Virus record (IMG/VR): IMGVR_UViG_3300008107_000057
Span: 1-58,578 of that record
Source: a virus
Lineage: Duplodnaviria; Caudoviricetes
Strand: one strand, 5' to 3'
Length of the DNA: 58,578 nucleotides
Positions 17,044 to 54,055 of this stretch are shown here, piece after piece. Within the stretch, counting starts at the first letter, position 1; each line of letters begins with the position of its first letter. Position numbers and translations under genes: made by a program. The notes beneath the pieces were generated by a model that searched no databases, was not told where the DNA came from, and saw only the letters and a list, made by a program, of their open reading frames with translations.

Positions 17044-17065
17044 ATATAACAAAGGATAGAAATAC

Positions 17066-20000: not shown

Positions 20001-23000
20001 ACCCAACTGTGCAAATCACTGGTATTGTTCCGGGTGCAGCCGCAGGCGAAGTTGCATTCTCAAGCCCATTTGTGCAAAATCAATATGCCAACAGAATCGT
20101 TGTAGCTACCCAAAATCAGCTTTTCACCGAAAATGCTGTGGTACGTTACGAAAATAGAGGCGGTGTTGATATTGGCTCTGGTACTGTTGGTTTCCCAGGT
20201 TTAGTCAATAACAAGAGTTATATTGTTAGAAACGTAGTAAACGATATTGCATGGTCCGTTAGTGGATTACTATCGGCTGCTACATCAACTGCTACTTCAT
20301 TGACCATTACCACAGCAGTTGGTCTAAATATCGGCGATACTATTAAAGTTGGCAACGAGTACATTTATATTAGCAACATTGTCAGTCAAACACTAACAGT
20401 GATTAGAGGTTTTAGAGGAACTACAGCCGGTGACATACAAGAAGCAACCGCAGTTGAAAAATTATACGGTAGCTTCCAGTTGTTTGATACCACACAGGGC
20501 GCACAACGTACATTCTCGACTGGTGCAGCTGATGCAACCAACGATTTCTTTACGTTAGTTAATCATAATCTAAGAACCGGTGATACAGTTGCAATTTCTA
20601 GCACCGCAGCTGGTACAATTGCTGCCTTCGGTGGTGTGGCAATTTCATTAGTTGGTGCCTCAGTTTACTATGCGTTGGTGTATAACAACAACGAATTTGC
20701 CTTGGCATTTACACCTGCACTAGCATATGCACAATATCCATTGGATATTACAGCAGCAGGTACAGCATGGACATTTGTTCACTACTACAGTTCGATTCCG
20801 TTACAGGGCCTAGCATCTAGCACAGTAGGTAATCACACACTAGAGGACGTTTCTTCAACAGGCACACTGGACGGCGGGTATCAAGTTGTATCTACTACAG
20901 CTACTACCTTTAATCTAGCAACAAATACTACAGTTCCTGTAAGAGAGTTTAAATTTGAACCCGCTGATTATCTAAACATGTTAACTGGCGAATTTATAAT
21001 TCCTAATCATGGTTATATCACTGGTGGCAAAGTAACATACAGCAAAGGTGCATTGGTATATGCAATCGGTGAAGGCCTTGCTGCTGATGTTCCACCTAGC
21101 GGATACAATGCTCTTACAAACAACGCCGCATACTATACTATTAGAACTGGTATTGATTCCTTCCAGTTAGCTACTACCAAAGCTAACGCATTGGCAAATA
21201 TTCCAATTCGTAGATATGCCACATTAGGCAGTACTGGTGCTCATACATTTACTAGTTCATTGGTATATGGAGAAAGTCTAGCACAAGGTCTAGCAACAAT
21301 TGTTGCACGTGACGTTGTTGTCAACGGTTCTTTAAACACTGTTGTTTCAGCAGCTTCGGATAGAATTATTTCTACTGCACACGGTCTAATTACTGGTGAC
21401 CGCGTAACATATCGCGTATGGGCCGGTGGTCGTGTAATTAACGGTCTAGTTGACGGGCGTCAATACTTTGTTAACAACTCCGTAAACACAGGCCCTCGTG
21501 GCGGTGCACAAACCGGCCAATCAGCCAACCAATTCTCCTTGCATAACAGCTGGGTTGGTTCATATACCAACTCTGACCTAGTTGACATGTCCGGAGTAGG
21601 TTCAGGCACTGTTCACCAATTTAAAGTATCGAACCCAACATTAGTTGGTACGTTCTTCAAAGGCGAATGGAATGCAGCAGATACATATGTCTACGGTGAC
21701 ATGGTTATCTATAACGGTATGTATTGGATGAGTTTAGTTAATGCTAACGTTAACTTTGTTCCGGTGGCACTAACAACTGGACTCGATAACCTAGCTTGGA
21801 TGCGAGCTCCAACACTGCAAAACTACAGTACTAGATTCCTAGTCAGCTATAGAGGTGGTGATAACATTAAGTTAAGCAATCAGCTTATTCGCAGAACACT
21901 GATCATTGACGGTTCAAGTGCATCTCGTGTTATTACAGTAGATAACCGTATTAACTTTGCCACAGCACACAACCTAAAAACAGGTGATGCAGTTCGTTAT
22001 AACATTAGTGCTCCGGGTGGTAGTCATCAAGGTGCGACACCAGCAACTGGTGCTTATTCCAACTTTGTTGGAACCACTGGGGTTCCTCAGACACCTATTG
22101 GTGGTCTAGTAGCCAACAGAACTTACTATGTTAACGTACAAGGTTCTACAGATATTACTCTGCATGACACACTAGCAGGCGCTATCGAAGGCGGTTCTGG
22201 TGATACAGGTAACTTTGTAACTGCTGTTAACTTGACCGCAGTTGGTACTGGTACTATACATAGATTTGACTTGATAGAAAATGTTACCTACACAATGAAC
22301 ATCTTGTCGGTGACCAATGACAGAGAAATGATCGTCAGTGATCCATATCCAGCTAAGTCAATTCAATTCAACCCACAAGGTAGTTTTACAACAGTAGCCA
22401 ACCTGATAACAGACACTGTAGATATTCCAGAAAACGAAATTTACATTGCGAATCACGGTCTAGATACCTGCGTTAAGGTATACTACTCAGTGGGTCCAGT
22501 TGGTTCTGGTACTGCTATGGGCGGTTTAGTTGACGGTACTGCATACTATGTTATCAAGTCCGACGAAGACAGTTTTGCACTAGCAACAACAGTTACCAAC
22601 GCATTGTTAAACATTAGAATTGATATCACCTCAACTGGTACTGGTTTCCAACACTACTTTATCGCAGCAACAGCGGCCGGTTCAAGTCAGCTACGCTATG
22701 ATAACGCCGGAGCATTTACGACTACTGCTCCAAGTGGTACATTGTACTACACCGGTCAAATTGGTGCTAACATCCGTGACGGTGTATTAACAGCATTGCC
22801 AATTATCCAAGAAACACAGGTATATGTTCGTCCAGATTGTATCAACGTTCACAGACCGTTTGACGGCGGTGTTGAAATTAACGCTTCGACTAGTCCGGGA
22901 GTTTCGATTACTAGACAGACTCGTAAGTATTTCCGTTATCAATCTGGTAAAGGTCTACAATACTCAACCGGTATTAACTTTAGCCCAAGTATTGACGTTG

Positions 23001-25371
23001 CTAGAATCACACACGATGGCACAACTTATGCCACAGTTAAGACACGTAGACCACATAGATTAACTGTAAACAGCAAGATTATGATTGAGAATGTAGAAGC
23101 CAAAGACGAGTACACAGCAGTCAAATGTGAGCGTGACTTAGCTTACTTCATTGATGGTGTGCGTTATGACATTACATTGGGAACTAACTACAATGCAGTG
23201 TTCTTGGGTCTAGCAGAAGTTAATACTCTAGATTTTAGTGCTACTGTTGTGACAGCAATCAATAATACAAAAACATTGGTTGCAGCATTACCAAACGTTG
23301 CAGCAAGTGCAACAGCTACTAGCCGTTCAAATGCTTTCTTTACAGAAGTGTTAGACATTGCTACTAACGGTCGTGCTAATGCAGATGCGGTAACATTCAC
23401 AAATCCAGGCACAGCAACAGCAAGTCAAATTGCTGCCAAAGACAGAATTGCAGCCAACAAGGCGTTTATTGCAGCTGAAATTAATGCTTGGATTGCAGGC
23501 ACATACCCAACTGCAACCCACGATGTTGCTAAATGTACTCGTGACGTAGGTTATGCATTAAATGCACTAGCATACGACATATTGTATGGCGGCAATAGTG
23601 CAACAGTCAACAGGCAGCATTCTTCTTCTACTTTGATAGTTCTGGTGTATCCGGCATTTATACCCAGGATAAGACACAAACTGTTGCAGCCTATAACAGA
23701 TTGCAGGCAATTATCAGTCAAGTTGTTCAGAACCAAGCTATTACTGGCGGCTTTGGAAATCCAAGTGGAAAGTCAACAGGCAATGCATTGACACAAGACA
23801 CAACCGGCACAGCAGCAAGTGCAGGAGATGGCAGCATATTACAGACACTGGTACAGATTACAGAAGATGTAATTAATTCAGACAGCCAGTTAATTGCAAT
23901 CAGCGGATTACCGGCCATTGTTTATCCAAACGTAGCATGGGCACTTGATGAGTTAGAAACTGCAAAAACTGCTATCGAAGCAGCGAAAGACTCAATTATC
24001 GCCAACGTTGTACGCGGTGCACCATACTCACAGCCAGCAGGAGGCGGCGAGTACTTTGTTATAAACAACATCATCGATGACTTTACTTTCCGTTATGCAA
24101 CGAACGGTGTGCCAATTAATCTAGCACCAAGTGGATTCCCTAGCTTGTTTGTACATAGCTGGACTGATGCTGTGGTACGTGCTGGTGTATTTGATGATCA
24201 AAACGGTATTTTCTATGAATATGACGGCAAGCATCTAAATGCTGTTCGTAGAAGTTCAACAGCACAATTGGGCGGAACAGCGTCATCAACAAGCGGTTCT
24301 AGAAAGCTAACTGGTACAGATACTAACTGGACTAAGCAGCTACGTGCAGGTGATAGAATTGTTGTTCGCGGTCAACCACTAAAAGTTGTAGCGGTAATCA
24401 GCGACACAGAAATACACTTCCAGCCAACATATAGAGGTTCGTCAAGAAGTGGTATCGTTATTACTAAGACGTTGGATCTAAAAATTCCAAGTTATAGATG
24501 GAACAAGGATACCTGCGACGGCAACGGACCAACTGGCTTTAACCTAAACATTCACAGAATGCAGATGGCCTATGTTGATTATAGCTGGTACGGTGCAGGT
24601 AAAGTACGCTATGGTTTCAAGGGACCTGACGGTAAGGTATTCTATGCACATGAGTTAATTCATAACAACGTTGAAATCGAAGCCTACATGCGTTCTGGTA
24701 ACTTGCCAGCTCGCTATCAGATCGAAAACGGCGCGGCCCCAACATTTGCTCCAAGCTTGTACCACTGGGGTGCTTCGATGATCATGGACGGCGGATTTGA
24801 AGACGACAAGGCATATTTGTTCACTGTTGCTTCTGGTTCTGCTGGTAACGACACTGTTACAATTAACCAGGCATTAGCTGGAAGTCCAGTTCCAATCTTA
24901 AGCCTACGTTTAGCTCCTTCCGTAGATAGCGGCCTAGTTGGCGCATTGGGCGATCGTGACATTATCAACCGTATGCAGATTGCACTTGACTCTGTTGGTG
25001 TTGTGGTTTCTAACGCAACTTCTAGACCAGCTTCGTTTAGACTTGTACTAAACGGTGCTCTAGCACAACAAGCATACTTTGCTAACTATGGTAGTCCATC
25101 GTTGACACAGATTATCAAGCACACCGGTGCAGCCAATGACACAGTTGTTGGCGGTACAACACTGTTTGAATTCCGTGCGCTAGCAACAGTTACAGGTAAC
25201 GTGACAGCGCAAGATTTGTCACAGTTGGTCGAAATTGGTAACAGTTTACTTGGTGGTGATTATGTATTCCCGAACGGGCCAGACGTAATTACACTAGTTT
25301 GTGTGCCAAGAGATACTACAGCAGCGACAGCAGTAACTGCTCGATTTACCTGGAAAGAATCACAGGCTTAA
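17066..25371 (+). CDS. giant virion appendage protein (about 2768 aa if joined), interrupted by a -1 frameshift near 23599-23615
   Basis: ORFs 17066..23791 and 23701..25371 together align end to end with paralog 26534..32083 (DFEYGLQ.TKW, HRPFDGGV, KY.RYQSGKG, VRAG.FDDQNGIF.EY, YSWYGAG, EAYMR.GNLP.RY, FPNGPDV, W.E.QA). The second frame is open from 23599. Confidence 0.75.
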
Positions 25372-25381
25372 TGGTAAGATT

Positions 25382-25413
25382 AAAAAGCCCCACAGAAATG
25401 TGGGGTTTTTTTT
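25382..25413 (+). terminator. rho-independent terminator
   Basis: CCCCACA-GAAA-TGTGGGG hairpin with a long T-tract, directly after the giant gene. Confidence 0.85.
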
Positions 25414-25456
25414 ATTTTCTTGTTCGATAAATAATACGACAAGGTAAAAACTCATT

Positions 25457-26521
25457 ATGGCACAACGGGAAGTAATAACATCACGACTTAGAATTTTGCC
25501 GGTTGGTTTAAAAGACCTCCGACAGGGATTCCGCGGCGAAATCACCTACGATTACGAGAAGGACACTCTCAGACTATATAACGGTGAAGATCGCGGAGGA
25601 TTTGAACTTCTAAGAGCAGATCTATCAAACATTGGTGGCGGTTCCACATCGCTGACCCTAGGTACAATTACTGCACTTACTGCGTTTCAAGGTAAATTAA
25701 TTACCAATCAAACGCAGGGCATTGATTTCAATAATCTTGCAGGCCTAGCTACCCGATTGTCTGTAGATGCAACTAATTTTAAAATTCAGTCAACTGCAAA
25801 TGTGCAGAGTATTCGCATTGAAAATTCCACAGGCCTAGGCAAGCTTGAAATAACACAATCAGGTAATATCGATATTCAAGCCACTGATAAAGTTACCATT
25901 GAAGGTATTAGTTTCAAAGGCACTGAAATCGACACCACCGACTCGACCACGCTAAATATTGTTCCAGTAGCTAATTTTAGATCAAATATTACTTTTGCAG
26001 GAACGTTACTGCCTGCAATAACCAATACTGTATCTTTAGGATCTAGTTCAAAGAAATTTACCAAAGCGTGGATTGGCACAGGCGGTATTGACATTGACTC
26101 AGCACAGCTTTTAAAAGCTGCAAGTGGAAAGATTTTTTCATCAACAGGTTTTGAAACTGCAATTGGATTTGATGTAAGTGGTGGTATTAACATTAGAGAA
26201 ACAACGTACAATGGAACAACAGTTACAGGTAACACTTTCTTATCAACATCATCGGCTGCTACTAGCGGCGGAGCCGGTCAGTTGATTATTCAAACCTCTA
26301 ATCCACTATCAGTTGACAGACGATATGCGTTAGTTCCAGCGGTAAACAATCAATATACTTCAGGTAGCCCGTCGTTTAGATGGAAGGCTACATATACCAC
26401 AGAAGTAAAATACAATGACGGTACTACACAAACAACAGCACCTGAAACAAATCCTTTAGTTTCAACTAAGGTATACACAAACAGAAGAGCAACTGCATTG
26501 GCAATTGCATTAGGTGGATAA
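25457..26521 (+). CDS. tail fibre-like virion protein
   Basis: GEITYD..KDTLRLYNG...GGFELLRADLSN fibre N-terminal motif, LG.SS..F/W repeats, DGTTQTTA; ends ALAIALGG. TAAATA at 25428-25433. Confidence 0.6.
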   Translation: MAQREVITSRLRILPVGLKDLRQGFRGEITYDYEKDTLRLYNGEDRGGFELLRADLSNIGGGSTSLTLGTITALTAFQGKLITNQTQGIDFNNLAGLATRLSVDATNFKIQSTANVQSIRIENSTGLGKLEITQSGNIDIQATDKVTIEGISFKGTEIDTTDSTTLNIVPVANFRSNITFAGTLLPAITNTVSLGSSSKKFTKAWIGTGGIDIDSAQLLKAASGKIFSSTGFETAIGFDVSGGINIRETTYNGTTVTGNTFLSTSSAATSGGAGQLIIQTSNPLSVDRRYALVPAVNNQYTSGSPSFRWKATYTTEVKYNDGTTQTTAPETNPLVSTKVYTNRRATALAIALGG

Positions 26522-26533
26522 CGGAATAATAAA

Positions 26534-29500
26534 ATGGCAAAACAACTACTAAAAAAATATAGCTTTAAACCCGGAGTTTCATATCTAGGTAATTTAAAGC
26601 CTAATGCTTACGAGTTAATCCTCGCAAATAAAACATATCTTAAAAAAGAAGTAACTGCATTTTTAAATGCTCAAGTTTTAGCCGGCGCAAACGGATTTGT
26701 AGGGTACACATTCAGTGATGTAAAATGTGAAAGAGATACTAATTATGTTCTTGATGCATATTTGTTTGATCTACGATACGGCGGCAATGAAGAGACTCGT
26801 CGTGTAGCAAGCAAGTACTGGGATGGTGATGTTCCTCAAATCGACGGCGATCGAATTGCAGAAGTTGTAGGACATACTTTTTTACGTAATCTAATCAACA
26901 ATTATATCTTAACTAACACAGCAGCACCTTCTTATCAAGCTGTTGTTCCGCAGGTAATCGATTTAACTAAAACAAGAGAAACAGATGCAGTGTCCCGAAT
27001 TACTGCACTTTCTGGAATTCTTATTCAGGTTATCCAGTCCGGCACATCAGTTTTGCCAGCAGAAGTAACAGGCGTTAGTCGTATTAAGATTCCAAAGAGA
27101 TACGAGCAGGCAAATGTTTTATTAATTACCAATACAACTAAAAATGAAATTATCTACGATTTTAGTGATCCAGCAGCCGGCGCAACTATTGCATTCTTCC
27201 GCGAAACAACCGCCGAGTTTCCAAGACTATTAGAGTGGGCGCAGGGTTATACTGTATTAACATTGTATTACGATACACGCACCATGTTAGCCACAGACGA
27301 TATTCAAATCTTTGTGGACGAAGAATATCAAATCACTAGACCTTATAAATTTGGCACAGATGCCATGGAACGTATGAGAGTTGGCATACCACAGGCCATG
27401 CTTGATGCTGACTTTGAATATGGCCTACAACCAACTAAGTGGCAGGCTATTGCAACATCTAGGGGATATCCGTCGACCTACGAAATCCCAGGCAGTGATT
27501 TAATTGTTAGTCTTTGCGTCACTGACGCATCGACTGGTACAGCAGGTGTCGGTCCTAGTTTGATTACAGTAACCACAGTGTCTCCGCACTTTTTATCAGC
27601 AGGTACTCCGATTAGCATCAAGGCGTTGGCTAGCTCAGTATCGGGATTTAGCCGAGCAGAAGGAACATTCTTGGTTAATTCCGTTCCTTCTGAAAACACA
27701 TTTACATATTATGCAAAGTCTAGAGTAGGAACCATTAGCGGTTCACCGATTGCTACATCATATACTCAATTACGTTTGGCAGGATTTTACACTGGTGCTG
27801 CCCTAGGAAGTCCAACATTTTCAGTTGCAAGTCAAGGGTCGGCTGGTACAATCACAGCACTACTATCGAGCCCAACGGGTACAACTACTGTTGCATTTAG
27901 TGGAACCGCACCATTAGTAAGTAACCCAATTGCAACTGTTACTGCAAGATTTACAGGTAACTGTACAACTAGTACTGTATTAACCGTTACTGCAATTGCC
28001 ACAGGGGTGATTGTCAATGATCTAACTTTATCTGGCACCGGTGTTGCTAACGGTACAAAAATTACAAGTCAGTTAACTAGTACGGAAATTGGAAATACGC
28101 TAGGTGGTCGTGGAACTTATCAAATGAGCGGTTCTGCTCAGACTATTGCAAGTACTACTATTAGCGGTTCTTCGATTAACTTAGGCACACAGATTGCCAG
28201 CGTTACAGGCCCTGGTGGTACTATTGCTACTGTATATGCAAGCGTTAATGTGGAAATTGGTGCAACGGAAATCCCAGTAGTAAATGCAACTGGAGTTGTA
28301 CCTGGAGCAGTCATTGATAACGGCAGCGGAGCACCTATGGAAGTTAGCTCAGTTGTCGGTAATACAATTTACTTTCTAAGTCCACGCACAACAAGACTCA
28401 TTGGCGATGGCGGAATATACAATAATGTCGTTGGTACAAACGTTGTCCAAACGATCGATGACACTGCGGTGTTTAGTTTTACCAGCGGCGGTGGTTCGTA
28501 CAGTTTGTTATCAATCGATCAAACTGGTCAAGGATATAATATTAATGATACCATAGTTATTCCCGGATCGGATGTTACCTACTACACAACTACTGTACTA
28601 TTAGTACATTTTGATCAAAATCCAACTGGACCATACGCTCTTAGTGGTTTCTTAGATATTGCCAACGGAATCCAACCCACTATAACCGGTGCAGGAACAG
28701 ATGCCTTACTGAGTGAAAACATCAAAAGATTTGGACGCTCAAGTTTATTCTTAAATAATCCAACTACACTTGCAGCAACAGCCACTGGATATCTCGATTA
28801 TGCTATTAACAATAATTTTTTGTTTGTCTCCGGCGATTTTGAAATTGAAGCTCAGTTTTATCCAACAACACTAGGCACTGCAACATCTAAAACACTATTT
28901 GATTTTAGAGAGCAATCACCAGATGCAGCTATTACATTACGAATTAATTCGAGCAATAACCTAGTAATTACCATTGACGGTGTTGAAGTCATTGTCGGCG
29001 ATACTGTGTTAACTACTAATCAATGGTATCATATTGCTATTTCTAGAACCACTAATACACTAAGATTGTTTGTCAACGGTAGTCAAGAAGGCGCAAATTA
29101 TACTGACAACGTATCTTATCAGGCGCATACTAAAGTGCGTCTTGGTGCAGATTTTACAGGTGCTAGAGGCTTTGCCGGATATATTGACGAGTTTAGAATT
29201 AGAACAGTATCGACGCTTTACACTGGTTCATACACAGTACCGACAGTGCCTTACACACACGATGCACAGGGTAGTAGCGGCAACTCGATTACTCTGCGAG
29301 TAACAGCTACATTTAGTACGGGTGGTATTCAATCAGCAGCAGTTATTAGCGGAACACCTCCAGTAAATGGAGAAGCATACAGACAGTTGTCGACTGGTAT
29401 AGTTCAAATTCCGACTGGTATCAATGCTTCGTTCAATATTACTAGATCTGCCGGTACGTACTCTGGAATAGCTGTTTCATCTGGCGGGACTGGATACCTT

Positions 29501-32083
29501 GCTGGTAATTTAATTAACATATCAAACACCTTATTAGATGGTGGCGGAGATGGCAATAAAGACTTATTATTGATTGTAGTTTCGACTGGTTCTAACGGTG
29601 TTATACAAACAGTATCGGGTGTATCAGGTGTTGCAACACTTAGTGGTACTCCGATTCCAGTATTATCAGCCATTGATTTTAACGAAGTGCTTCAAGCGCC
29701 ATTACCATCGGGGCGCACATTAGAGTATAGTGCAATTGCATCCATTAATGTGACATTCCCTAATGCACACGGATTGGTCCCGGGACAAGGTATATCAGTA
29801 GTTATAGGTTCAGCAGGCACTAATCAATCTTTATTAAACGGTCCGTTCGTGGTTGAACAAGTACCGACATTGCAGACATTTAGATTTTCTGCAAGGTCAT
29901 CTGGAACTATTGGAACTTCGCCAACGATTACTGGAATAGTGTATCCAAGAACAGATGCATTCTTCTTGCATCGCCCGTTTGACGGCGGTGTATTACTAAG
30001 TACCGGTACTCCGGCACATGGTGCACAGGCAGTTCGTATGAGCAAGAAGTATATTCGTTATCAATCTGGTAAAGGTGCCATGTATACCACTGGTGCATTA
30101 TTTGCACCAAGTTATGACCTACGTAGCCTAACAGCAGAAAGTACGGCCTCAAATTCATTAATCACTATCACAGTCGACGACAACGACCACGGTCTTCAAA
30201 TTGGTGCAACTGTTAGGATTACCGGAGTTATAACCACTGGATATAACAATGATTACTCCGCCGTTGAAATAGTAGACGAGCGTATTTTTAAAGTACGGGC
30301 TAAGACACAGCTAGGCAATGTTACTGCTACTATTGGCTCTAGTTGTCAAATGGCCCACATTGGATGGCATGGCGCGGTAGTACGTGCAGGTGCGTTTGAT
30401 GATCAAAACGGTATTTTCTTTGAATACAATGGTCGTGAACTTGCTGTAGTAAGACGCTCTAGTACTTTCCAACTTGCAGGTACTGTGTCAATTAATGCAG
30501 ATTCAAATCTATGCTCTGGTACAAATACGAGATTTTTAGACCAAGTTGTTGCAGGTGATAGAATTATTATCAAGGGAATGACTCACGTTGTTACTGGTAT
30601 TACCAACAACACAACATTGACAGTTAACCCTGACTTCCGTGGTGTAAGCAATGTTGTTAATGCAAAGGTCTGTTTAATTCAAGATTATAGAATTCCACAA
30701 GACGAATGGAATCAAGATGCCTGCGACGGTACCGGACCTAGTGGTTACATTATCGACATTACAAAAATGCAGATGATTGGTATGCAGTATAGCTGGTACG
30801 GTGCTGGTTTTATCGACTGGATGTTCCGTGGTCCAAACGGTGACTATGTATTTGCACATAGATTAAAAGGTAATAATTTAAACACAGAAGCTTATATGCG
30901 TACTGGTAACTTACCAGTTCGTTACGAAGTGTTAAATGAAAGTGCTAGAAATAAATTAAGTGTCACATTAACAGCAATTGCAACGAGTATGACATTAATT
31001 GACGGTAACCAATTCCCAGATTTTGGTACAGTGTATGTTGATAATGAACTTATTTCATATACTTCTAAGACTGGTAATGTGCTTGGCGGACTATCGAGAG
31101 CAGTTGCATTGAGTAACTTTAATTCTGGATCACAAAGAACATATACAGCAGGCGCCGCCGCAATACACACTGCTGGTACTGGTGTCAACTTAGTATCGGT
31201 GCTGTCAAGTCCATTAATTAGCCACTGGGGTTCTGCCTATCTAATTGACGGTCAGTTTGACACTGATCGCGGTTATATTTTTAACTACCAAATTACTAAC
31301 TTTGCAGTTACAACTGTTAAGTCAACAGCATTTGCTATTCGACTAGCACCTAGTGTTTCAAACGCTATTACTGGTGACTTAGGCGAACGTGAATTGTTAA
31401 ACAGAGCGCAGTTATTATTGAACTCGCTGGAGATTGTGGGAGGTACTGCAAGTGCTAACTCGTTCGTTATTGAGGGTGTATTGAATCCACTTAACTATCC
31501 AGTTACAACTACTGATATTAATTGGTTTGGTCTTACATCAACAGCGCAGGGCGGTCAACCAAGTTTTGCACAGATTGCCAACGGTTCTAGCATTTTGTGG
31601 CTGAACACAGGATCTGCAGCAGCTACTGCAATTCAAGGCTACACTACCACACCTAGCTCTAGAATTAGAGTAGCTACTTTTACTTCGACCGAAGTTAGTG
31701 CAGTTCGACTAGGTTATGTTGTATCAGCTGCTGCTAGCATACAGCCAGGTACTGTTGTTGAAAAGATCGAATTTAACGTGCCTAGTGCAGGACAGACTAG
31801 AATCACAATCTCAAAAGACGTTACCGCTGCGGTAACTGGTGCAGTAACATTTAGTGCACCGGCATACGCACAACCGGGTGAACAGGTTTTTGCGTTCGTT
31901 GCTCCACTAGGTACTCGAGAAGTTATTGACTTGTCTGGATTGAAAGAATTAACGTCTACAGCAATTGGTGGTAGAGGTACATTTCCAAATGGTCCAGACG
32001 TGTTAGCAATTAACATTTACGTTACTGGTGGTGCTGCAACCAGTGCTAACTTGATTCTACGTTGGGGTGAAGCGCAGGCTTAA
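26534..32083 (+). CDS. large virion appendage protein (1849 aa) with a LamG/concanavalin-A-like lectin domain
   Basis: Paralog of 17066..25371. LamG-like segment (LLVHFD...GDFEIEAQFYP...NQWYHIAISR....LRLFVNG...GYIDEFRI) at about 28590-29270. Confidence 0.72.
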   Translation: MAKQLLKKYSFKPGVSYLGNLKPNAYELILANKTYLKKEVTAFLNAQVLAGANGFVGYTFSDVKCERDTNYVLDAYLFDLRYGGNEETRRVASKYWDGDVPQIDGDRIAEVVGHTFLRNLINNYILTNTAAPSYQAVVPQVIDLTKTRETDAVSRITALSGILIQVIQSGTSVLPAEVTGVSRIKIPKRYEQANVLLITNTTKNEIIYDFSDPAAGATIAFFRETTAEFPRLLEWAQGYTVLTLYYDTRTMLATDDIQIFVDEEYQITRPYKFGTDAMERMRVGIPQAMLDADFEYGLQPTKWQAIATSRGYPSTYEIPGSDLIVSLCVTDASTGTAGVGPSLITVTTVSPHFLSAGTPISIKALASSVSGFSRAEGTFLVNSVPSENTFTYYAKSRVGTISGSPIATSYTQLRLAGFYTGAALGSPTFSVASQGSAGTITALLSSPTGTTTVAFSGTAPLVSNPIATVTARFTGNCTTSTVLTVTAIATGVIVNDLTLSGTGVANGTKITSQLTSTEIGNTLGGRGTYQMSGSAQTIASTTISGSSINLGTQIASVTGPGGTIATVYASVNVEIGATEIPVVNATGVVPGAVIDNGSGAPMEVSSVVGNTIYFLSPRTTRLIGDGGIYNNVVGTNVVQTIDDTAVFSFTSGGGSYSLLSIDQTGQGYNINDTIVIPGSDVTYYTTTVLLVHFDQNPTGPYALSGFLDIANGIQPTITGAGTDALLSENIKRFGRSSLFLNNPTTLAATATGYLDYAINNNFLFVSGDFEIEAQFYPTTLGTATSKTLFDFREQSPDAAITLRINSSNNLVITIDGVEVIVGDTVLTTNQWYHIAISRTTNTLRLFVNGSQEGANYTDNVSYQAHTKVRLGADFTGARGFAGYIDEFRIRTVSTLYTGSYTVPTVPYTHDAQGSSGNSITLRVTATFSTGGIQSAAVISGTPPVNGEAYRQLSTGIVQIPTGINASFNITRSAGTYSGIAVSSGGTGYLAGNLINISNTLLDGGGDGNKDLLLIVVSTGSNGVIQTVSGVSGVATLSGTPIPVLSAIDFNEVLQAPLPSGRTLEYSAIASINVTFPNAHGLVPGQGISVVIGSAGTNQSLLNGPFVVEQVPTLQTFRFSARSSGTIGTSPTITGIVYPRTDAFFLHRPFDGGVLLSTGTPAHGAQAVRMSKKYIRYQSGKGAMYTTGALFAPSYDLRSLTAESTASNSLITITVDDNDHGLQIGATVRITGVITTGYNNDYSAVEIVDERIFKVRAKTQLGNVTATIGSSCQMAHIGWHGAVVRAGAFDDQNGIFFEYNGRELAVVRRSSTFQLAGTVSINADSNLCSGTNTRFLDQVVAGDRIIIKGMTHVVTGITNNTTLTVNPDFRGVSNVVNAKVCLIQDYRIPQDEWNQDACDGTGPSGYIIDITKMQMIGMQYSWYGAGFIDWMFRGPNGDYVFAHRLKGNNLNTEAYMRTGNLPVRYEVLNESARNKLSVTLTAIATSMTLIDGNQFPDFGTVYVDNELISYTSKTGNVLGGLSRAVALSNFNSGSQRTYTAGAAAIHTAGTGVNLVSVLSSPLISHWGSAYLIDGQFDTDRGYIFNYQITNFAVTTVKSTAFAIRLAPSVSNAITGDLGERELLNRAQLLLNSLEIVGGTASANSFVIEGVLNPLNYPVTTTDINWFGLTSTAQGGQPSFAQIANGSSILWLNTGSAAATAIQGYTTTPSSRIRVATFTSTEVSAVRLGYVVSAAASIQPGTVVEKIEFNVPSAGQTRITISKDVTAAVTGAVTFSAPAYAQPGEQVFAFVAPLGTREVIDLSGLKELTSTAIGGRGTFPNGPDVLAINIYVTGGAATSANLILRWGEAQA

Positions 32084-32732: not shown

Positions 32733-34172
32733 TTAGGCATCCATCCTAAAGCGCCAGTAACCTGACTTGTACTCGCCTTCAAAACTCTTAAGCCACTGTG
32801 TACCATCCCAACGATATTGGATACCTGTCTTAAGATTCTGCGTGTATACTGGAGTCGATCCGTTGTTAGTACTAGCATCGAATACCACAGTCCACCCAGT
32901 GCCTGTGTATTCGATAATATCATAGGCACCGGCAGAGAAATCATCCCATGCCCATACACCAGATTTTATTATTCCAGTAGTTGGATTACTATCGTGTTCA
33001 GCATCATAGGTTCTATTTGTAGTAACAATATCATCCAGTATTAAATATCTTGCACCAGCAGTAACAGGTTTTGGATTAAATTTAACTGGATCAATGATTG
33101 CATCAATTGTTGTACGACCGGCAATAATTGTATTAGAAGGTTTTTCGTCAATGCTCACTAACAAGTACGTAGAGTCAACTTCGTTGACAACAAAGGTACC
33201 ACGCAATTCATAGCCGTTCGGCTGCATTAGGTAAATTTTGCTAATACCTGGCTGATAACCTTCGTGTTGTTGTAATATAATGTTCCAGTCAATGCGCTTA
33301 CCTAACTTAGCAGGTACATCGTCGGCTAGTGTTTGTAACGCTTCGCCCGGACTTAGAATGCTTAAATCGTAGTCGTTGCCCATTTGATTGTTACTCTTTA
33401 ACAATAGCACACCAAAATTACCCGGAGTGGTGTTATACTTCAACGGTGCATCGCCATTATACACAAGACTGTTAATATCTTGTACATCGCCCGAGTTGTT
33501 AAAAATGTTCATAATAATATTTTTAACAACGCCAAGACGTTTAACTTTGGCTGGCGGTGTAATATAAACCGGCATTGAACATTCGATCGTGCATATATCA
33601 ATATCTGATTCTGTGCCCATTGGAATACTTCGAGAACTAAAGTTAACTGATGATAAATCAACAACACTCAAACTTGTCCAATCTATGTAGTTGTCAGTGG
33701 TTTGAACTTCTAAACTAGGATTAAACAACACAAGTATTTGTTCTAATAGTTGTAATTTTTGATCAGTATTAGAAGTCCATATATCGCACTTCATAGTTAA
33801 CTTGTATGGCGTTGGCATTAACCGTTCAACAGTATAAGATGCACCTTGAGTTTCCTGATATATAGGATCGCCAAAGCTATCGTATTCGTTGTAGCCACGT
33901 TCTCTAATATTCATCTTACTGACAAAGCTAGCATCTGCTAGTCTTGTAGTATCTAGTTCTAATCCACTGATATAACAACTGATTCTAGGTACAGTCATCA
34001 TTTTATTTTCAGAGTTTTCTTTGATAATCGAAGCAACAGAACGACTCATGTCGCCATACATAACTGGCACATGTCGATGTTCCCCATCTCCTGATTGATA
34101 TTTAAATCCAATAAAGATACGCATAAATTGGGTTACATATCTTCTTATCTGGCCATCATAGAAAAAGTCCAT
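32733..34172 (-). CDS. gp15: tail sheath stabiliser / tail terminator
   Basis: MDFFYDGQIRRY..QF..IF, VPVMYG, PRIS, MPTPYKL...DIW.SNTDQKLQLLEQILVLFNP; extra C-terminal domain. Confidence 0.75.
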   Translation of the reverse strand: MDFFYDGQIRRYVTQFMRIFIGFKYQSGDGEHRHVPVMYGDMSRSVASIIKENSENKMMTVPRISCYISGLELDTTRLADASFVSKMNIRERGYNEYDSFGDPIYQETQGASYTVERLMPTPYKLTMKCDIWTSNTDQKLQLLEQILVLFNPSLEVQTTDNYIDWTSLSVVDLSSVNFSSRSIPMGTESDIDICTIECSMPVYITPPAKVKRLGVVKNIIMNIFNNSGDVQDINSLVYNGDAPLKYNTTPGNFGVLLLKSNNQMGNDYDLSILSPGEALQTLADDVPAKLGKRIDWNIILQQHEGYQPGISKIYLMQPNGYELRGTFVVNEVDSTYLLVSIDEKPSNTIIAGRTTIDAIIDPVKFNPKPVTAGARYLILDDIVTTNRTYDAEHDSNPTTGIIKSGVWAWDDFSAGAYDIIEYTGTGWTVVFDASTNNGSTPVYTQNLKTGIQYRWDGTQWLKSFEGEYKSGYWRFRMDA

Positions 34173-34330
34173 TAATTATATCCTTTGCTGTCACTGACGT
34201 TTTTGCAGTCCGGGCACTCACAGTCTGGACAGTATTCGCAATCTTGGCAGCTATGGCCGCAATGTTTCTTACAGCCGCATTTACAGTTAGTTGCGGCTGT
34301 ATATCGTTTGTAATCGTTGTAGTCGTCCAT
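34172..34330 (-). CDS. 52-aa Cys-rich metallothionein-like peptide (not in the ORF track)
   Basis: Manual translation: MDDYNDYKRYTAATNCKCGCKKHCGHSCQDCEYCPDCECPDCKNVSDSKGYN (10 Cys, 2 His). GGAGG SD at 34340-34336; the stop overlaps the gp15 start (TAATG). Confidence 0.75.
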   Translation of the reverse strand: MDDYNDYKRYTAATNCKCGCKKHCGHSCQDCEYCPDCECPDCKNVSDSKGYN

Positions 34331-34341
34331 ATAAGCCTCCA

Positions 34342-35538
34342 TTAATTATCTGCCTTTGGACGTAATGCTTTTGTAAGACTTTGACGTTCTTCAACAACAT
34401 GACCGTTGATAGTTGTCGTTGCTTCATTATTGATAAAAGTTGATTTCTGATTATTTCTAACAGACTTGCCTTCAAAGGGTTGACCGGAAGTTACGTCACT
34501 TGGTCCTAGATTACTCATAGTTGCTCTAGTAACATCTTCAACTCGTGCCCAATACTTTCCTGTGTATCTAAACAATCTGTTTGGTTTATAATCTGTTCTA
34601 AGATGATATTGTCCTTCTTGCATATTAAGTGGAAATGCAATGCCGCTGGTAAATGGAGCACCGTTAGGAGCAATGCCTTGACCTAATAGATAACCGTCAT
34701 AGCCTAGCTTGTCTGCGGTCTGTAACACCAAGCTAACATCAATTGCAGTATTAGAACTTGCAACGGTATCGCTGTCAACAGTGATTAATTCTGGAGTTCC
34801 ATCTTCTCTAACCTGTACAGTATAGAATGCAGCAGTTTCGTAGCCACTATATGGCGCATCTGCTTCGGCTTGATCAAGCACAGCAGACGTAATTTGCATT
34901 TCTTTTTCGTAAGTCGACATAACATCGCGCAGTGTAAGATTAGTATCTTCGCCGGCAACGCCGTCAAGAATATCTTTAAATTCCTGACTGTCGACTAGTG
35001 GTTTACACTTTGCACGATATAGATGAGGATACCAAGTTACAGAAAATCCTTCAGCAGCTCTAGTTACTTCTTCAATGACATAAAATCGTTTCAATGCAAA
35101 ACTCAGATCATTAAGCGCATATTCGTCTTTTAGATGCGGAAGTTCAATAACATCACCGGACATTATTTTTCTTCCAACTTTTTCTACAGTATCATTAATA
35201 TGGAATGTAACAAAGATAGTATCATTTTGAAGAAATAATCCAAACTGTGATAAGTTAAAATCTAAATCTTGAAGATTATAATGACCTCTAAGAAGATATA
35301 TGTCCGGATCATACTTACGGTCTCTATTTTCAAGGAATAACATATCCTGAATCTGTGTAGGATTTGTAGAACTATACGCAGGTGTACTGGGAGTATCGCC
35401 CTGTACGGAAGCTCCTGGTCCTAGATATTTGTGAACAAGGATATCTGTACCGCCAATTTGGAACATCTCCCATATATTGCGGTCTATAAATCTGTAATCG
35501 TTGCCCTTTTCAGGGCGGTATAAACTGAGTCTTGGCAT
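34342..35538 (-). CDS. gp14: neck / head-completion protein
   Basis: Starts MPRLSLYRPEKG at 35538; LSQFGLFL.ND and GDVIELP motifs; located beside gp13 and gp15. Confidence 0.7.
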   Translation of the reverse strand: MPRLSLYRPEKGNDYRFIDRNIWEMFQIGGTDILVHKYLGPGASVQGDTPSTPAYSSTNPTQIQDMLFLENRDRKYDPDIYLLRGHYNLQDLDFNLSQFGLFLQNDTIFVTFHINDTVEKVGRKIMSGDVIELPHLKDEYALNDLSFALKRFYVIEEVTRAAEGFSVTWYPHLYRAKCKPLVDSQEFKDILDGVAGEDTNLTLRDVMSTYEKEMQITSAVLDQAEADAPYSGYETAAFYTVQVREDGTPELITVDSDTVASSNTAIDVSLVLQTADKLGYDGYLLGQGIAPNGAPFTSGIAFPLNMQEGQYHLRTDYKPNRLFRYTGKYWARVEDVTRATMSNLGPSDVTSGQPFEGKSVRNNQKSTFINNEATTTINGHVVEERQSLTKALRPKADN

Positions 35539-35571
35539 AGTAGTATATTTACCGTTGTAATAAATAACAGT
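35539..35571. promoter_or_regulatory. back-to-back divergent late promoters (two TAAATA) in 33 bp
   Basis: Minus-strand TAAATA at 35551-35546 (7 nt from the gp14 ATG) and plus-strand TAAATA at 35561-35566 (5 nt from the gp13 ATG). Confidence 0.65.
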
Positions 35572-36330
35572 ATGAGCCAAATTAATCCAGACAAACAAGC
35601 CGTTTATGACTATTGCCGCACCATGCTAGGTGACGGAATGATTGACATCGAACTTGATCCAAAACATTACGAAACTGCATTAGACAGAGCATTGGCTGTA
35701 TTTCGCCAGCGCAGTGATAACTCCGTTGAAGAAAGCATGGCATTTTTGATCACTACAATTGATCAGAATGAATATTTTCTTCCAAAAGAAATTCAACAAG
35801 TTCGTCAAATTTTTAGACGTAGTGTTGGTTCACGTAGTGGCGGTGGTACTGGCGGCAGCGTATTTGAACCATTCAACCTAGCCTACACAAACACCTATCT
35901 ATTAAGTTCTACTAACATGGGCGGCCTAGCTACCTATGAACTGTTTGCTGGCTATCAAGAAATGGTAGGCAAAATGTTTGGTTCCTACATTAACTTTAAT
36001 TGGGTACCGCAGAGCCGCAAGATTGTTCTACAGCAACGCCCAAGAGCAGAAGAAGAACTCATGCTATGGGTATACAATACTCGCCCAGACAGTGCAATCA
36101 TCAATGACACCTATGCCGGGCAGTGGATCAAAGACTATTCTCTAGCTAACTGTAAAATGATGTTAGGTCAAGCTCGCGAAAAGTTTGCACAACTAGCAGG
36201 ACCACAAGGTGGATCAAGCCTTAACGGTGCAGCTATGAAGTCCGAAGCAGCGGCTGAAATTGAAAAACTTACAACAGATTTAACAATGTTGGTACCCGGT
36301 GGCCACGGCTACTCGTTTATAATCGGCTAA
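35572..36330 (+). CDS. gp13: neck protein
   Basis: DYCRTMLG.G.IDIEL, WIKDYSLA.CK.MLG..R.KF..L.GP.GG..LNG and a C-terminal FIIG match the gp13 pattern. Confidence 0.85.
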   Translation: MSQINPDKQAVYDYCRTMLGDGMIDIELDPKHYETALDRALAVFRQRSDNSVEESMAFLITTIDQNEYFLPKEIQQVRQIFRRSVGSRSGGGTGGSVFEPFNLAYTNTYLLSSTNMGGLATYELFAGYQEMVGKMFGSYINFNWVPQSRKIVLQQRPRAEEELMLWVYNTRPDSAIINDTYAGQWIKDYSLANCKMMLGQAREKFAQLAGPQGGSSLNGAAMKSEAAAEIEKLTTDLTMLVPGGHGYSFIIG

Positions 36331-36337
36331 GAAATAT

Positions 36338-36366
36338 TTGACTGTATTACAGATTTGCTACATAAT
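36338..36366 (+). promoter_or_regulatory. sigma70-like (early) promoter
   Basis: TTGACT-N17-CATAAT upstream of the dNMP kinase SD (GAGGA). Confidence 0.6.
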
Positions 36367-36387
36367 AGCATATCTAGAGGACAGTTT

Positions 36388-37071
36388 ATGATTATAGGCG
36401 TGTGCGGTTTTATTGGTTCAGGTAAAGATACAATAGCAGATTACCTTACAAACTTTCATGAATTTAGACGTGAAAGTTTTGCTAATACTTTAAAAGACGC
36501 AGTGGGTTATGTCTTTGGATGGGACAGAACCATGTTAGAAGGGCGCACAAAGCAAGCCCGAGAATGGCGTGAACAAGTGGATCCATGGTGGGCAGAACGA
36601 TTAGATATGCCTAACTTAACTCCTAGACTAATGCTTCAACTATGGGGCACTGAAGTGTGTCGCAGAGGTTTCCATGATGATATATGGATTGCTAGCCTAG
36701 AAAATAAACTCCGATCAAGTACAGACAATATTGTTATTAGTGACTGTCGCTTTCCTAACGAAATCAAATCAATTAAAGACGCCGGTGGTATCATTGTATG
36801 GGTTAGACGCGGTGAGCTACCTGAATGGTATGAAGATGCAGTTAATGCAAATCGTGGAGAAAATGGTAACTTCTCATGGTCCACTAGTAGAAGCAAACTT
36901 GAAAAATTAGGAATTCATGCCAGCGAAACGGCTTGGGTTGGCACTAAGTTTGATCATGTACTAGAGAATAGTGGCAGTATAGACGACTTGTTTACCCAAG
37001 TTAAAAGTCTGGTACAAGATCCCCTTGTCTCCATTGGATCCCTTCCTTATGAAGAATCCGTTGGCAGTTAG
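36388..37071 (+). CDS. deoxynucleoside monophosphate kinase (T4 gp1-like)
   Basis: MIIGVCGFIGSGKDT P-loop, SFANTLKD, TPR.MLQ.WGTE..R, VISDCRFPNE, HASE. ATG 36388 has an SD. Confidence 0.9.
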   Translation: MIIGVCGFIGSGKDTIADYLTNFHEFRRESFANTLKDAVGYVFGWDRTMLEGRTKQAREWREQVDPWWAERLDMPNLTPRLMLQLWGTEVCRRGFHDDIWIASLENKLRSSTDNIVISDCRFPNEIKSIKDAGGIIVWVRRGELPEWYEDAVNANRGENGNFSWSTSRSKLEKLGIHASETAWVGTKFDHVLENSGSIDDLFTQVKSLVQDPLVSIGSLPYEESVGS

Positions 37072-37333
37072 AACACACTGTTTTTAAGTTAGTGGGACGG
37101 CAGTTATTCAAGTCGCCGTCTACATGAAACACATTAAACACCTCCTTGTGTGGACTTTTAAATCCACATTTGTCGCAGGTGTTTTTCATTTTGTAGCCAG
37201 CACGATACCATCTAGGTATTGAACTATCATTACCATATAAGCAGCTTTCGCACTTACTTCTATAAAATGTTTTACCATTTTTATGGTAATTAATTGCAGC
37301 TGGCCTTAAACCGCACTTGCATAATGGTCTCAT
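37001..37333 (-). CDS. Zn-finger HNH endonuclease-like protein
   Basis: CxC and CxxC motifs plus HVDGDLNNCRPTNLKTVCSNC; TAAATA 5 nt upstream (37344-37339). Confidence 0.75.
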   Translation of the reverse strand: MRPLCKCGLRPAAINYHKNGKTFYRSKCESCLYGNDSSIPRWYRAGYKMKNTCDKCGFKSPHKEVFNVFHVDGDLNNCRPTNLKTVCSNCQRILHKEGIQWRQGDLVPDF

Positions 37334-42579: not shown

Positions 42580-42948
42580 ATGAGCACGAATCTACCCCCA
42601 CGCGATAATAACGACAGCGCACGGGCTACTAAACTATTCTTTGATAGTTATGGTAAAGTACCCCTTCAGTTTAATGCAAATGAAGTTGGAGCAGCTCAGG
42701 CATTTTTTGAAACTAAGGGATTTGACCTAGATGCATCGGCCTTGACTTCTGCTGTTCTATTAAAGCAAGCAAAATTAGATAACATGAATGTTTTTGAAAT
42801 ACTCGATACATTAAAGGGTTTCAGCAACATTCAACTAAGCGCACTAGTAGCAGAAATTATTAATAATAATCGCCCAGCAACATCTACACTAGGTTATAGA
42901 AGAACCAGAGTAAACAACGAAACCGTTAACAGGAATATTATACCGTAA
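42580..42948 (+). CDS. hypothetical protein
   Basis: 122-aa ORF abutting both neighbours. Confidence 0.65.
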   Translation: MSTNLPPRDNNDSARATKLFFDSYGKVPLQFNANEVGAAQAFFETKGFDLDASALTSAVLLKQAKLDNMNVFEILDTLKGFSNIQLSALVAEIINNNRPATSTLGYRRTRVNNETVNRNIIP

Positions 42949-43388
42949 TGGGACGTTTTGCACAAGGTAAATTCGAAATGAAAAATCCCGAGAAGTATAT
43001 TGGGAAGAAAACACCGTTGGCAAGAAGTAGCTGGGAGTTTGTGTTTATGAGAATGCTCGACGAGCATCCCAGCGTAGAGAAATGGGCCAGCGAAGCAATT
43101 CAAATTCCATATCGTGATCCGCTAACTGGTAAACACACAATATATGTTCCGGACTTCTTTGTTAATTATATTGACAAAGGCGGAAAACGCCACGCAGAAG
43201 TAGTAGAAGTAAAACCAGAAAGTCAAACTCTCCGAGAAAAGACTGGCAAGAGTCAATACAATCAACAACAGTATGTAAAGAATCTAGCTAAATGGGAAGC
43301 AGCCCAAGCATGGTGCAAACAACAAGGTATTAGGTTTAGGGTCGTAAACGAAGGTGATATTTTTCATCAAGGCTCAAAACGTAGATAA
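42948..43388 (+). CDS. gp4: head completion nuclease (TnsA-like PD-(D/E)xK)
   Basis: NPEKY.G, RSSWE, WASE...IPY, YVPDF, EVKP and N.AKWEAA..WC. Confidence 0.88.
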   Translation: MGRFAQGKFEMKNPEKYIGKKTPLARSSWEFVFMRMLDEHPSVEKWASEAIQIPYRDPLTGKHTIYVPDFFVNYIDKGGKRHAEVVEVKPESQTLREKTGKSQYNQQQYVKNLAKWEAAQAWCKQQGIRFRVVNEGDIFHQGSKRR

Positions 43389-53302: not shown

Positions 53303-54055
53303 ATGAAACGTATTGTACTAATCACAGGCGGATTCGATCCCCTACACTCAGGTCACATTGCTTACTTTAAAGCAGCCAAAGAACTCGGTGATATGCTTAT
53401 TGTTGGCGTTAACTCTGACGAATGGCTTCGTCGAAAGAAAGGGCAAGAATTTATGCCCTGGGAAGAACGAGCAACTATAATTGCAGCTCTACAAGACGTT
53501 GATAGAGTTATTAACTTTGACGACAGCGATAATAGTGCTAAAGATGCTATTAGAAAAGTTAGAAAGATTCATCCACAATCTCATATTATCTTTGCCAATG
53601 GTGGAGATCGAACAAAGACAAATATTCCAGAAATGGATGTACTTAAGGAAATGCTTCATGTAGAATTTGTCTTTGGCGTCGGCGGAGAGGACAAAAAGAA
53701 TTCAAGCAGTTGGATCTTACAAGAGTGGAAAGCACCTAAGACTATTCGTCCTTGGGGATATTATAGAGTACTGCATACGGTAGGCGATAATGTTAAAGTC
53801 AAAGAATTAACAGTCGATCCTGGAAAAACTCTAAGTATGCAGAGACATAAACATCGAGCCGAACTTTGGTTTGTTGCTGAAGGCCAAGCTGCATTAAATT
53901 GGGAATATGGCGGTGAAAGAATTGACGTATACAAACAAGAAACTATTAATGTTGGCGAATGGCATCAATTACAGAACCCAACAGATAAACCGCTGCGGGT
54001 TATTGAAATACAATACGGTGAACAATGCGACGAAGAGGACATTGAAAGAAAATGA
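53303..54055 (+). CDS. cytidylyltransferase-family nucleotidyltransferase fused to a mannose-6-phosphate-isomerase-type cupin
   Basis: TGGFDPLHSGH (HxGH), GVNSD.WL.RKK, FANGGDR; then RPWGYY...LSMQRH.HRAE.W...IEIQYG...EEDIER. Confidence 0.85.
   Translation: MKRIVLITGGFDPLHSGHIAYFKAAKELGDMLIVGVNSDEWLRRKKGQEFMPWEERATIIAALQDVDRVINFDDSDNSAKDAIRKVRKIHPQSHIIFANGGDRTKTNIPEMDVLKEMLHVEFVFGVGGEDKKNSSSWILQEWKAPKTIRPWGYYRVLHTVGDNVKVKELTVDPGKTLSMQRHKHRAELWFVAEGQAALNWEYGGERIDVYKQETINVGEWHQLQNPTDKPLRVIEIQYGEQCDEEDIERK

Follow-up and report, generated by a model that had tools for sequence, protein, structure and literature searches.

A ten-cysteine mini-gene at a neck-gene junction of a T4-type phage fragment belongs to an undescribed viral family and may specify a metal-binding protein

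The window analysed here, the whole of a 58,578-nt viral DNA fragment (IMG/VR record IMGVR_UViG_3300008107_000057), carries on its minus strand a 56-codon mini-gene that exactly fills the gap between a virion gene in the position of gp14 (the gp14-position gene) and a gene for a T4 gp15-like protein. We found this mini-gene to be a genuine coding gene and its location to be a recurrent insertion hotspot, at which it sits as a passenger that keeps the overlap design on both sides. Judged by its pattern of residues, the product belongs to an undescribed family of 36–66-residue proteins. With slightly better than even confidence, we read it as a soluble metal–thiolate cluster protein that would act as a metal store or donor and not as a part of the neck, with iron or iron–sulfur (Fe-S) supply as the leading guess for the metal carried.

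The mini-gene and its start codon

The mini-gene and the elements within it are as follows.

34172..34342, minus strand: ten-cysteine mini-protein gene, 56 codons plus stop (TAA at 34174-34172), identified from its open reading frame (ORF), homologues and purifying selection
34205..34285, minus strand: Cys-rich core C20–C46, C-x-C-x-C-x2-H-C-x3-C-x2-C-x2-C-x2-C-x-C-x2-C
34328..34330, minus strand: internal in-frame ATG (Met5), the start preferred in a sequence-only reading of this DNA
34336..34340, minus strand: GGAGG inside codons 1–3 of the 56-aa form, 5 nt before ATG 34330

That sequence-only reading had proposed a minus-strand micro-ORF that exactly fills the gap between the two genes, and packs 10 Cys and 2 His into 27 residues (CxC, CxxC and CxxxC spacing); on both counts it was borne out. 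The overlaps it had described are likewise present at either end: a single base belongs both to the TAA stop of the mini-gene and to the ATG of the gp15-like gene (32733..34172), and another both to ATG 34342 and to the TAA stop of the upstream gp14-position gene, each junction reading TAATG. All ten Cys, 18 % of the 56 aa, fall inside the 27-residue core, and the protein also has six Tyr. A fusion to a flanking gene was ruled out, as the mini-gene does not share the frame of either neighbour and is separated from both by a stop codon.

The ORF specifies 56 aa from ATG 34342 and 52 aa from the internal ATG 34330. The latter had been taken as the start, with GGAGG as its Shine–Dalgarno sequence; the GGAGG is indeed there, but probably forms part of codons 1–3 of a gene that starts four codons further upstream. 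Position 5 is Ile or Val in some relatives, and as such 34330 cannot be the start used by the family. Furthermore, the prefix M-E-x-Y ahead of Met5 is coding in relatives, with codon 2 mostly GAA and sometimes GAG, and codon 4 either TAT or TAC; having GAA as codon 2, most relatives lack GGAGG at that point. Several possess an AGGAG of their own 6–8 nt upstream of the first ATG, and the closest phage relatives (L058, L060 and L062) have the first ATG only, again within a TAATG overlap. The true start is probably ATG 34342, in which case the GGAGG of the window would merely represent the codons ATG GAG GCT.

An undescribed viral family under purifying selection

We defined the family by a length of 36–66 aa and the core C-x(1,2)-C-x-[CHD]-x2-H-C-x3-C-...-C-x2-C-x-C-x2-C, and the window protein has every position that is invariant in an alignment of 70 sequences. 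It matches relatives at E-values of 1e-13 to 4e-20, and the protein database contains four other clusters of 52–66-residue relatives (E 2e-13 to 4e-20). A profile search of 1.84 billion protein representatives returned 26 matches at E ≤ 1e-3, 25 of them 45–88 aa long and the 26th a weak match to a repetitive 1594-aa protein; none of the 26 was a fused form of the family. Viral contigs, scanned with six sub-family alignments, gave 59 related loci in the first scan and 24, 9, 11, 58 and 144 relatives in the others (80 of the 144 were kept), where the scans overlap and their E-values are relative to the candidate stretches only. The largest set, of 144, is a short sub-family of 36–41 residues that keeps the core and has no N-terminal helix. 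All relatives are metagenomic fragments, and viral contigs from fresh water and the sea show the family in at least 126 distinct neighbourhoods.

Within the searches made here the family was found in viral records only. No cellular member was detected in 185,579 species genomes searched with one pattern, which, being a single pattern, tests absence from cells only weakly; the sole match, L225, was a chance one with stops around it. A tblastn search of the peptide, proposed in the sequence-only reading and run against 50,697 GenBank phage records, gave no match, to which the low-complexity filter of BLAST may have contributed. Separately, two divergent tandem paralogues of the mini-protein, of 40 aa and then ~38–46 aa, are followed by an overlapping FkbM-type methyltransferase gene in L223 (3861-4102) and also in L205, L209, L211, L214 and L224.

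Across the 70 aligned sequences, C20, C22, H27, C28, C32, C35, C38, C41, C43 and C46 (nine Cys and His27) are invariant. C24 is Cys in at least 90 % and otherwise His (P0023, P0029 and L093) or Asp (P0034, L192 and L194), whilst His30, the second His of the sequence-only reading, varies freely. In one sub-family C-x4-C-x-C replaces C-x2-C-x2-C, with the number of Cys kept. Outside the ligands, D40 and E42 are invariant in the close family, Y11 and Y37 nearly so, and Y11 and K12 are strongly conserved.

From 27 distinct DNA versions of the 27-codon core we obtained, over 351 pairs, a mean proportion of synonymous differences (pS) of 0.88, which is saturated, and a mean proportion of non-synonymous differences (pN) of 0.15, with a median pN/pS of 0.17. 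Both TGT and TGC are used in all ten Cys columns of these sequences, and the residue is unchanged. Taken with the 59 viral loci of the first scan, this upholds the proposal of a real coding micro-gene.

Contigs identical to the window were found in three metatranscriptome libraries from three studies, at 34154-34366 (covering the entire ORF), 34183-34406 and 34289-34432, and give a weak sign that the mini-gene is transcribed, carry-over of DNA into such libraries being possible; stretches of the surveyed 1.4 kb that no RNA contig covers carry no meaning. Lake and freshwater metagenome runs contain DNA almost identical to that of the window (14 rows with ≥ 0.94 of the sampled words), nine of the 14 being flagged as possible sources of it.

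The case for metal binding

In the structure that we favour, an N-terminal helix (YMDDYxxYKR[FY]) would be followed by the 27-residue core, whose 11 conserved ligands would wrap a small metal–thiolate cluster of ~3–4 metal ions in the manner of a His-containing metallothionein, and the mini-protein, in soluble form, would store metal or donate it to metalloproteins of the phage or the host. The 11 ligands are the total of the conserved Cys/His positions, and the exchanges at C24 point to metal ligation: as this Cys is replaced solely by His or Asp, the position would be a metal ligand and not a disulfide or cross-link site. A disulfide-rich secreted peptide was considered and ruled out, given that there is no signal peptide and that the His/Asp exchanges at C24 fit ligands.

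Operationally, metallothioneins are small, Cys-rich proteins with CxC and CxxC motifs and few or no aromatic residues, which hold several metals in thiolate clusters. The mini-protein has the appropriate size, Cys content and motifs (CxC, CxxC and CxxxC), but its six Tyr depart from the usual scarcity of aromatics. A metallothionein-like, metal-binding nature is the best structural inference, with the 11 ligand positions and the exchanges at C24 behind it, and to that extent the comparison drawn in the sequence-only reading stands. Its more specific likening to SmtA/BmtA or MymT does not carry over to family membership by sequence: none of 31 members searched against Pfam-A (E ≤ 10) matched SmtA/BmtA (PF02069) or any other metallothionein family.

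A different use of the same ligands is conceivable, and we regard it as an unlikely but serious alternative. Here the Cys and His residues would hold two or three structural zinc ions in a compact, zinc-finger-like knot, with the metal not a cargo, and the N-terminal helix and acidic surface would bind and modulate one particular macromolecule of host or phage origin, for instance an enzyme, a regulator or a nucleic acid. The strong conservation of many non-ligand residues (Y11 and K12, along with D40 and E42) is in keeping with this, as are the very diverse contexts of the gene, beside nucleases, PolB and methyltransferases, which would suit a general-purpose modulator; the short sub-family, moreover, keeps the core without the helix, as a modular fold might. 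Such an adaptor is, however, at odds with the lack of any zinc-finger or zinc-ribbon family match at E ≤ 10, with the tolerated shifts in Cys spacing, and with CxC triplets and ten Cys in 27 residues, a density above that usual for independent Cys4 sites.

Far less probable is that the mini-protein is the precursor of a ribosomally synthesized and post-translationally modified peptide (RiPP) of a ranthipeptide/SCIFF-like kind, with the N-terminal helix as leader and the Cys core cross-linked by a radical S-adenosylmethionine (radical-SAM) enzyme. A Cys-rich core does lie behind a conserved N-terminal segment, and radical-SAM genes occur within 4 kb in 13 of the 126 neighbourhoods. Within 700 nt, where a maturase might be sought, such a gene is found in one of the 126, and none is present among the 47 window proteins scanned; the short sub-family, furthermore, has no leader, and the exchanges of Cys for His or Asp fit metal ligation and not thioether chemistry.

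The neck junction as an insertion hotspot

Of the 59 loci in the first scan, 28 have the mini-gene at the junction of the gp14-position and gp15-like genes and 31 have it elsewhere. We then surveyed this junction irrespective of the mini-gene, in the best 80 of at least 590 gp15-like loci. In 67 of the 80 the two genes abut, by overlap or with ≤ 11 nt between them, and the gp15-like relatives at 72 %, 68 % and 67 % identity belong to this abutting set. Another insert is present in ten loci, and two have no upstream gp14-position homologue; the mini-gene is present in a single one, L226, the near-identical twin of the window. The ten other inserts comprise six ~58-aa Lys-rich ORFs, three GIY-YIG endonucleases and one 44-nt gap. 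Among named phages, Atu_ph07 has an endolysin at this junction, whilst in PA5oct the two genes abut.

G006 comes from the same lineage, its gp15-like protein being 53 % identical to that of the L018 group and 42 % identical to that of the window. The neck junction of G006 is empty, and its mini-gene lies ~70 kb away, beside IscA. The junction is thus a recurrent insertion hotspot and the mini-gene its passenger, because the surveyed junctions are mostly empty or hold unrelated inserts, and because G006 carries the mini-gene elsewhere.

These results bear directly on the suggestion in the sequence-only reading that the peptide is expressed late and serves as a metal-bound part of the neck, or else as a chaperone of assembly, here taken as dedicated to the gp14/gp15 interface. 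Its exact placement between the two genes, with overlaps on both sides, speaks for such a role, as does the same placement in the 28 first-scan loci, where the flanks have diverged to 41–56 % identity. Had it been part of a T4-type neck module, presence at this junction would be expected to be conserved, and it was found at one of the 80 closest gp15-like loci, 67 of them being empty and others occupied by unrelated genes. Together with the relocated copy in G006, and with the occurrence of the family in many small phage contigs that have no such genes nearby, this renders a function in the neck or in virion assembly highly improbable. The conservation of frame, Cys and synonymous bias that had been looked for in related phages does exist family-wide; it is the gp14–gp15 gap of the closest relatives that mostly lacks the gene.

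The mini-gene would have entered exactly where the stop of the gp14-position gene overlaps the start of the gp15-like gene, and since TAATG overlaps are kept on both sides, it is probably co-transcribed and co-translated with the late neck and tail genes. A GIY-YIG gene lies directly upstream of the ten-Cys gene in L068 and L095, and GIY-YIG genes at or near mini-gene sites hint that endonuclease-driven insertion moves small cargo genes into the junction.

The other occupants of the junction are of interest in their own right. In L259, L263, L269, L276, L290 and L298 (six of the 80 surveyed loci) it is filled, over ~166–181 nt, by a different conserved small ORF of ~55–60 aa, Lys-rich and without Cys, that begins MRIEEIFGFA... 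or similar, and whose start and stop, in the loci inspected, lie within a few bases of the flanking stop and start. A GIY-YIG-type homing endonuclease gene of 530–550 nt occupies the same site in L264, L272 and L295.

Genomic neighbourhoods and the iron link

For the 31 first-scan loci away from the neck, an IscA (PF01521) or IscU (PF01592) homologue lies within ~700 nt of the mini-gene in 30, the 31st locus ending too soon. At least six gene orders are represented, in which the mini-gene is, for example, divergent from IscA, upstream of IscU–IscA, upstream of IscU–radical SAM–IscA, or between two IscA genes, and in L042, L047 and L051 its stop overlaps the ATG of IscU (TAATG). Elsewhere it is located within ribonucleotide reductase operons, in the order nrdA – mini-gene – thioredoxin – nrdB (L090 and L091) or nrdA – mini-gene – isocitrate lyase – nrdB (L072), and a Dps-like ferritin is encoded 1–3 kb away, near PolB, in L068, L069, L089, L095 and L104. 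Because the neighbours of relatives include IscU, IscA, nrdA/nrdB with thioredoxin, and Dps-like ferritin, iron or Fe-S supply would be the leading guess for the metal carried. The Zn/Cu-binding role put forward in the sequence-only reading finds no such backing, as these neighbours point, if anywhere, to iron.

A tally over the 126 distinct neighbourhoods gives a broader picture. The most frequent neighbour is an FkbM-type methyltransferase, found with the short sub-family (52 of 126), followed by the neck junction (20), IscA (13), an SNase-like nuclease (9), IscU (3), NrdA/NrdB (3) and a radical-SAM enzyme (1), each of the last five being counted within 700 nt. The mini-gene is directly upstream of the SNase-like nuclease in L070, L073 and L083, and genes for GH19-like, QueD and ClpB proteins lie near it in some relatives.

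Two further observations concern these neighbourhoods. Isocitrate lyase (PF00463, E ~1e-100) stands beside the mini-gene in two unrelated contexts, at L072:3590-4816, within the nrdA–nrdB operon, and at L096:4289-5500. In G001, a neck-type relative, a 108-aa ORF for a putative acyl carrier protein (ACP) with a DSLS motif comes after an IscA-like gene in the same orientation (L064:1218-1809), an arrangement that recalls the ACP of the mitochondrial iron–sulfur cluster (ISC) machinery.

The available part of one study (PMC5332604) describes phage IscU and A-type carriers as known auxiliary genes that co-occur with Fe-S client enzymes, and in that part makes no mention of a Cys-rich partner. A phage-made iron or Fe-S metallopeptide, acting as a dedicated metal or electron donor to phage IscU/IscA, radical-SAM enzymes and di-iron ribonucleotide reductase in an iron-limited host, is a tentative extension of our reading that we consider unlikely as it stands. 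Less probable still is a mini-ferredoxin or Fe-S/iron carrier proper, in which the peptide would bind an Fe-S cluster or Fe(II) and donate cluster, iron or electrons to phage IscU/IscA, radical-SAM enzymes or class I ribonucleotide reductase, as YfaE or Fdx do. The near-constant adjacency to IscU or IscA away from the neck, the overlapped IscU starts and the three genes set between nrdA and nrdB would all accord with such a carrier, as would the auxiliary IscU and A-type genes found alongside Fe-S clients (PMC5332604). The protein itself fits poorly: there is no CxxCxxCxxxCP motif and no Fer4-type match at E ≤ 10, the window having C-x2-C-x2-C-P-x-C; the CxxCxxC element is lost in one sub-family; and most of the 126 neighbourhoods have no iron-related neighbour.

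Turning back to the soluble metal–thiolate protein, a number of our own results weigh against it and against its link to iron. When 31 members were run against Pfam-A with hmmscan (E ≤ 10), no model for a metallothionein, ferredoxin or zinc finger was matched (the sole hits, spurious and sub-threshold, were Lipase3_N at 0.035 and DDE_Tnp_IS66 at 3.1, in one member each), none of the 31 matched NCBIfam, and a profile search of PDB sequences at E ≤ 10 gave nothing. AlphaFold2 models had a mean predicted local distance difference test (pLDDT) score of 52.8 with a 31-row alignment and 54.8 with a 70-row alignment, and provide no usable fold; as such, a fold search would be pointless, the models being too poor for meaningful matches, and the cluster topology proposed above is pure inference. 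The six Tyr and the strongly conserved non-Cys scaffold are more readily explained by a defined surface for interaction than by a protein that simply soaks up metal, and metal binding by the mini-protein is itself predicted. The sign of transcription is weak because contigs from RNA libraries can derive from carried-over DNA. With regard to iron, a neighbour of this type (IscU, IscA, NrdA, NrdB or ferritin) lies within 700 nt in just 19 of the 126 neighbourhoods, so that the link to iron and Fe-S, although real, holds for a minority, and a single ancestral arrangement may account for most of the IscA/IscU loci. IscU was not found in any of five neck-type records (the window and four others), and IscA is present in one of them, far from the mini-gene, where all five are fragments estimated at 16–43 % complete.

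Other searches were uninformative. PHROGs has no family for the mini-protein, and the ESM Atlas gave unnamed clusters only (0.78–0.79, below the level of meaning). A predicted complex of the L047 mini-protein with the adjoining IscU and four Zn scored 0.00 in a run made without controls.

The flanking genes and the phage

The genes on either side of the mini-gene, and the next one beyond, are the following.

34342..35538, minus strand: gp14-position gene, 398 aa from ATG 35538 (ORF list: TTG 35598); phrog_11591 virion structural protein, 1.3e-85
32733..34172, minus strand: T4 gp15-like tail terminator/sheath stabiliser gene; PF16724, 1.7e-27; T4 gp15 chains, E 1e-4
35572..36330, plus strand: divergent T4 gp13-like neck protein gene; phrog_211, 2.2e-32; T4 gp13 chains, E 2e-5

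Of the two names given to the flanks in the sequence-only reading, gp15 is supported by the PF16724 match, whereas gp14 is a name by position only, as the protein matches phrog_11591 and nothing in PDB. Homologues of the gp14-position protein start MPRLSLYRPEKG, at the equivalent of ATG 35538, and the one in PA5oct is annotated as detected by electrospray ionization tandem mass spectrometry. A start at ATG 35538 leaves 33 nt (35539-35571) to the gp13-like gene, which TTG 35598 would overlap.

The window is a 58.6-kb viral fragment, estimated as 16 % complete, with a T4-type core (portal, prohead protease, gp23, sheath, terminase, gp32-like and UvsX-like proteins), and has the jumbo phages PA5oct, Atu_ph07 and SCTP-2 as distant relatives. 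Several of its other genes were noted in passing. At 37001-37333 (minus strand), just upstream of the sheath gene, is a 110-aa ORF with nine Cys and weak HNH-endonuclease matches (phrog_2255, 5.9e-06), which overlaps by ~70 nt the 3' end of a deoxynucleoside monophosphate kinase gene on the opposite strand (36355-37071, plus). A 146-aa protein with a TnsA-like endonuclease N-terminal domain (PF08722, 1.2e-23) is specified at 42948-43388 (plus strand), within the structural module between the sheath region and the terminase. The region 13678-32083 (plus strand) contains a run of very large fibre-like proteins of 1121, 2241, 556, 354 and 1849 aa, the 1121-aa protein having three carbohydrate-binding CBM_5_12 stretches and the 1849-aa protein a Laminin_G_3 domain. 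Finally, a sugar-nucleotide/polysaccharide gene cluster at the end of the window (53303-58508) comprises a cytidylyltransferase/mannose-6-phosphate isomerase-like gene, a family 8 glycosyltransferase, an RmlD-like reductase and a Polysacc_synt_2 fragment.

Significance

Small genes such as this one fall under the length cut-offs of ORF callers and are absent from Pfam, NCBIfam and PHROGs, yet the present family is strongly selected. If it binds metal as we predict, the family would be the first phage-specific metallothionein-like family, as far as the literature searched shows: no publication turned up on a phage metallothionein, on a T4-like cysteine-rich metal protein or on the ten-Cys motif, and PMC10694778 only cites, in its reference list, a paper on the cyanobacterial metallothionein repression complex (SmtB). 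If the more specific donor role for IscU/IscA and its clients were true, the mini-gene would represent a class of auxiliary gene so far undescribed and carried by phages of very different kinds; its recurrent adjacency to IscU/IscA and nrdAB in any case offers a concrete starting point for asking how large phages secure their metal cofactors. A large group of T4-core jumbo phages has, in its neck module, an exact site of repeated insertion at a conserved stop/start overlap, and this also cautions against inferring function from position.

Comparison with known systems

In its placement, the mini-gene is comparable to phage 'moron' or homing-endonuclease-associated cargo genes, in that it is inserted exactly at the stop/start overlap of two conserved structural genes, and that in other phages this site is taken by a GIY-YIG endonuclease, a Lys-rich small ORF or an endolysin. 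It differs from these in having no nuclease features of its own.

With the small 2x[4Fe-4S]/[2Fe-2S] ferredoxins (Fdx and YfaE), the product shares its size and Cys-richness and, in relatives, a position beside IscU/IscA or between nrdA and nrdB, along with the CxxCxxC-P element of the window's protein. Unlike them, it matches no ferredoxin family, has its ten Cys packed far more densely, and does not conserve CxxCxxC across the family.

A further parallel is with SmtA/BmtA (PF02069), from which the mini-protein is nevertheless set apart by the absence of a detectable sequence relation, a different ligand order, six tyrosines, a conserved N-terminal helix, metal binding that is predicted only, and a family with members, in the searches made here, in viral records alone. 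What the two have in common is a similar size (SmtA has 56 aa), a Cys-rich composition with CxC and CxxC motifs, a cytoplasmic character with no evident signal peptide and, with the SmtA core given as Zn4Cys9His2 (PMC10119931), a set of 11 conserved Cys/His ligand positions.

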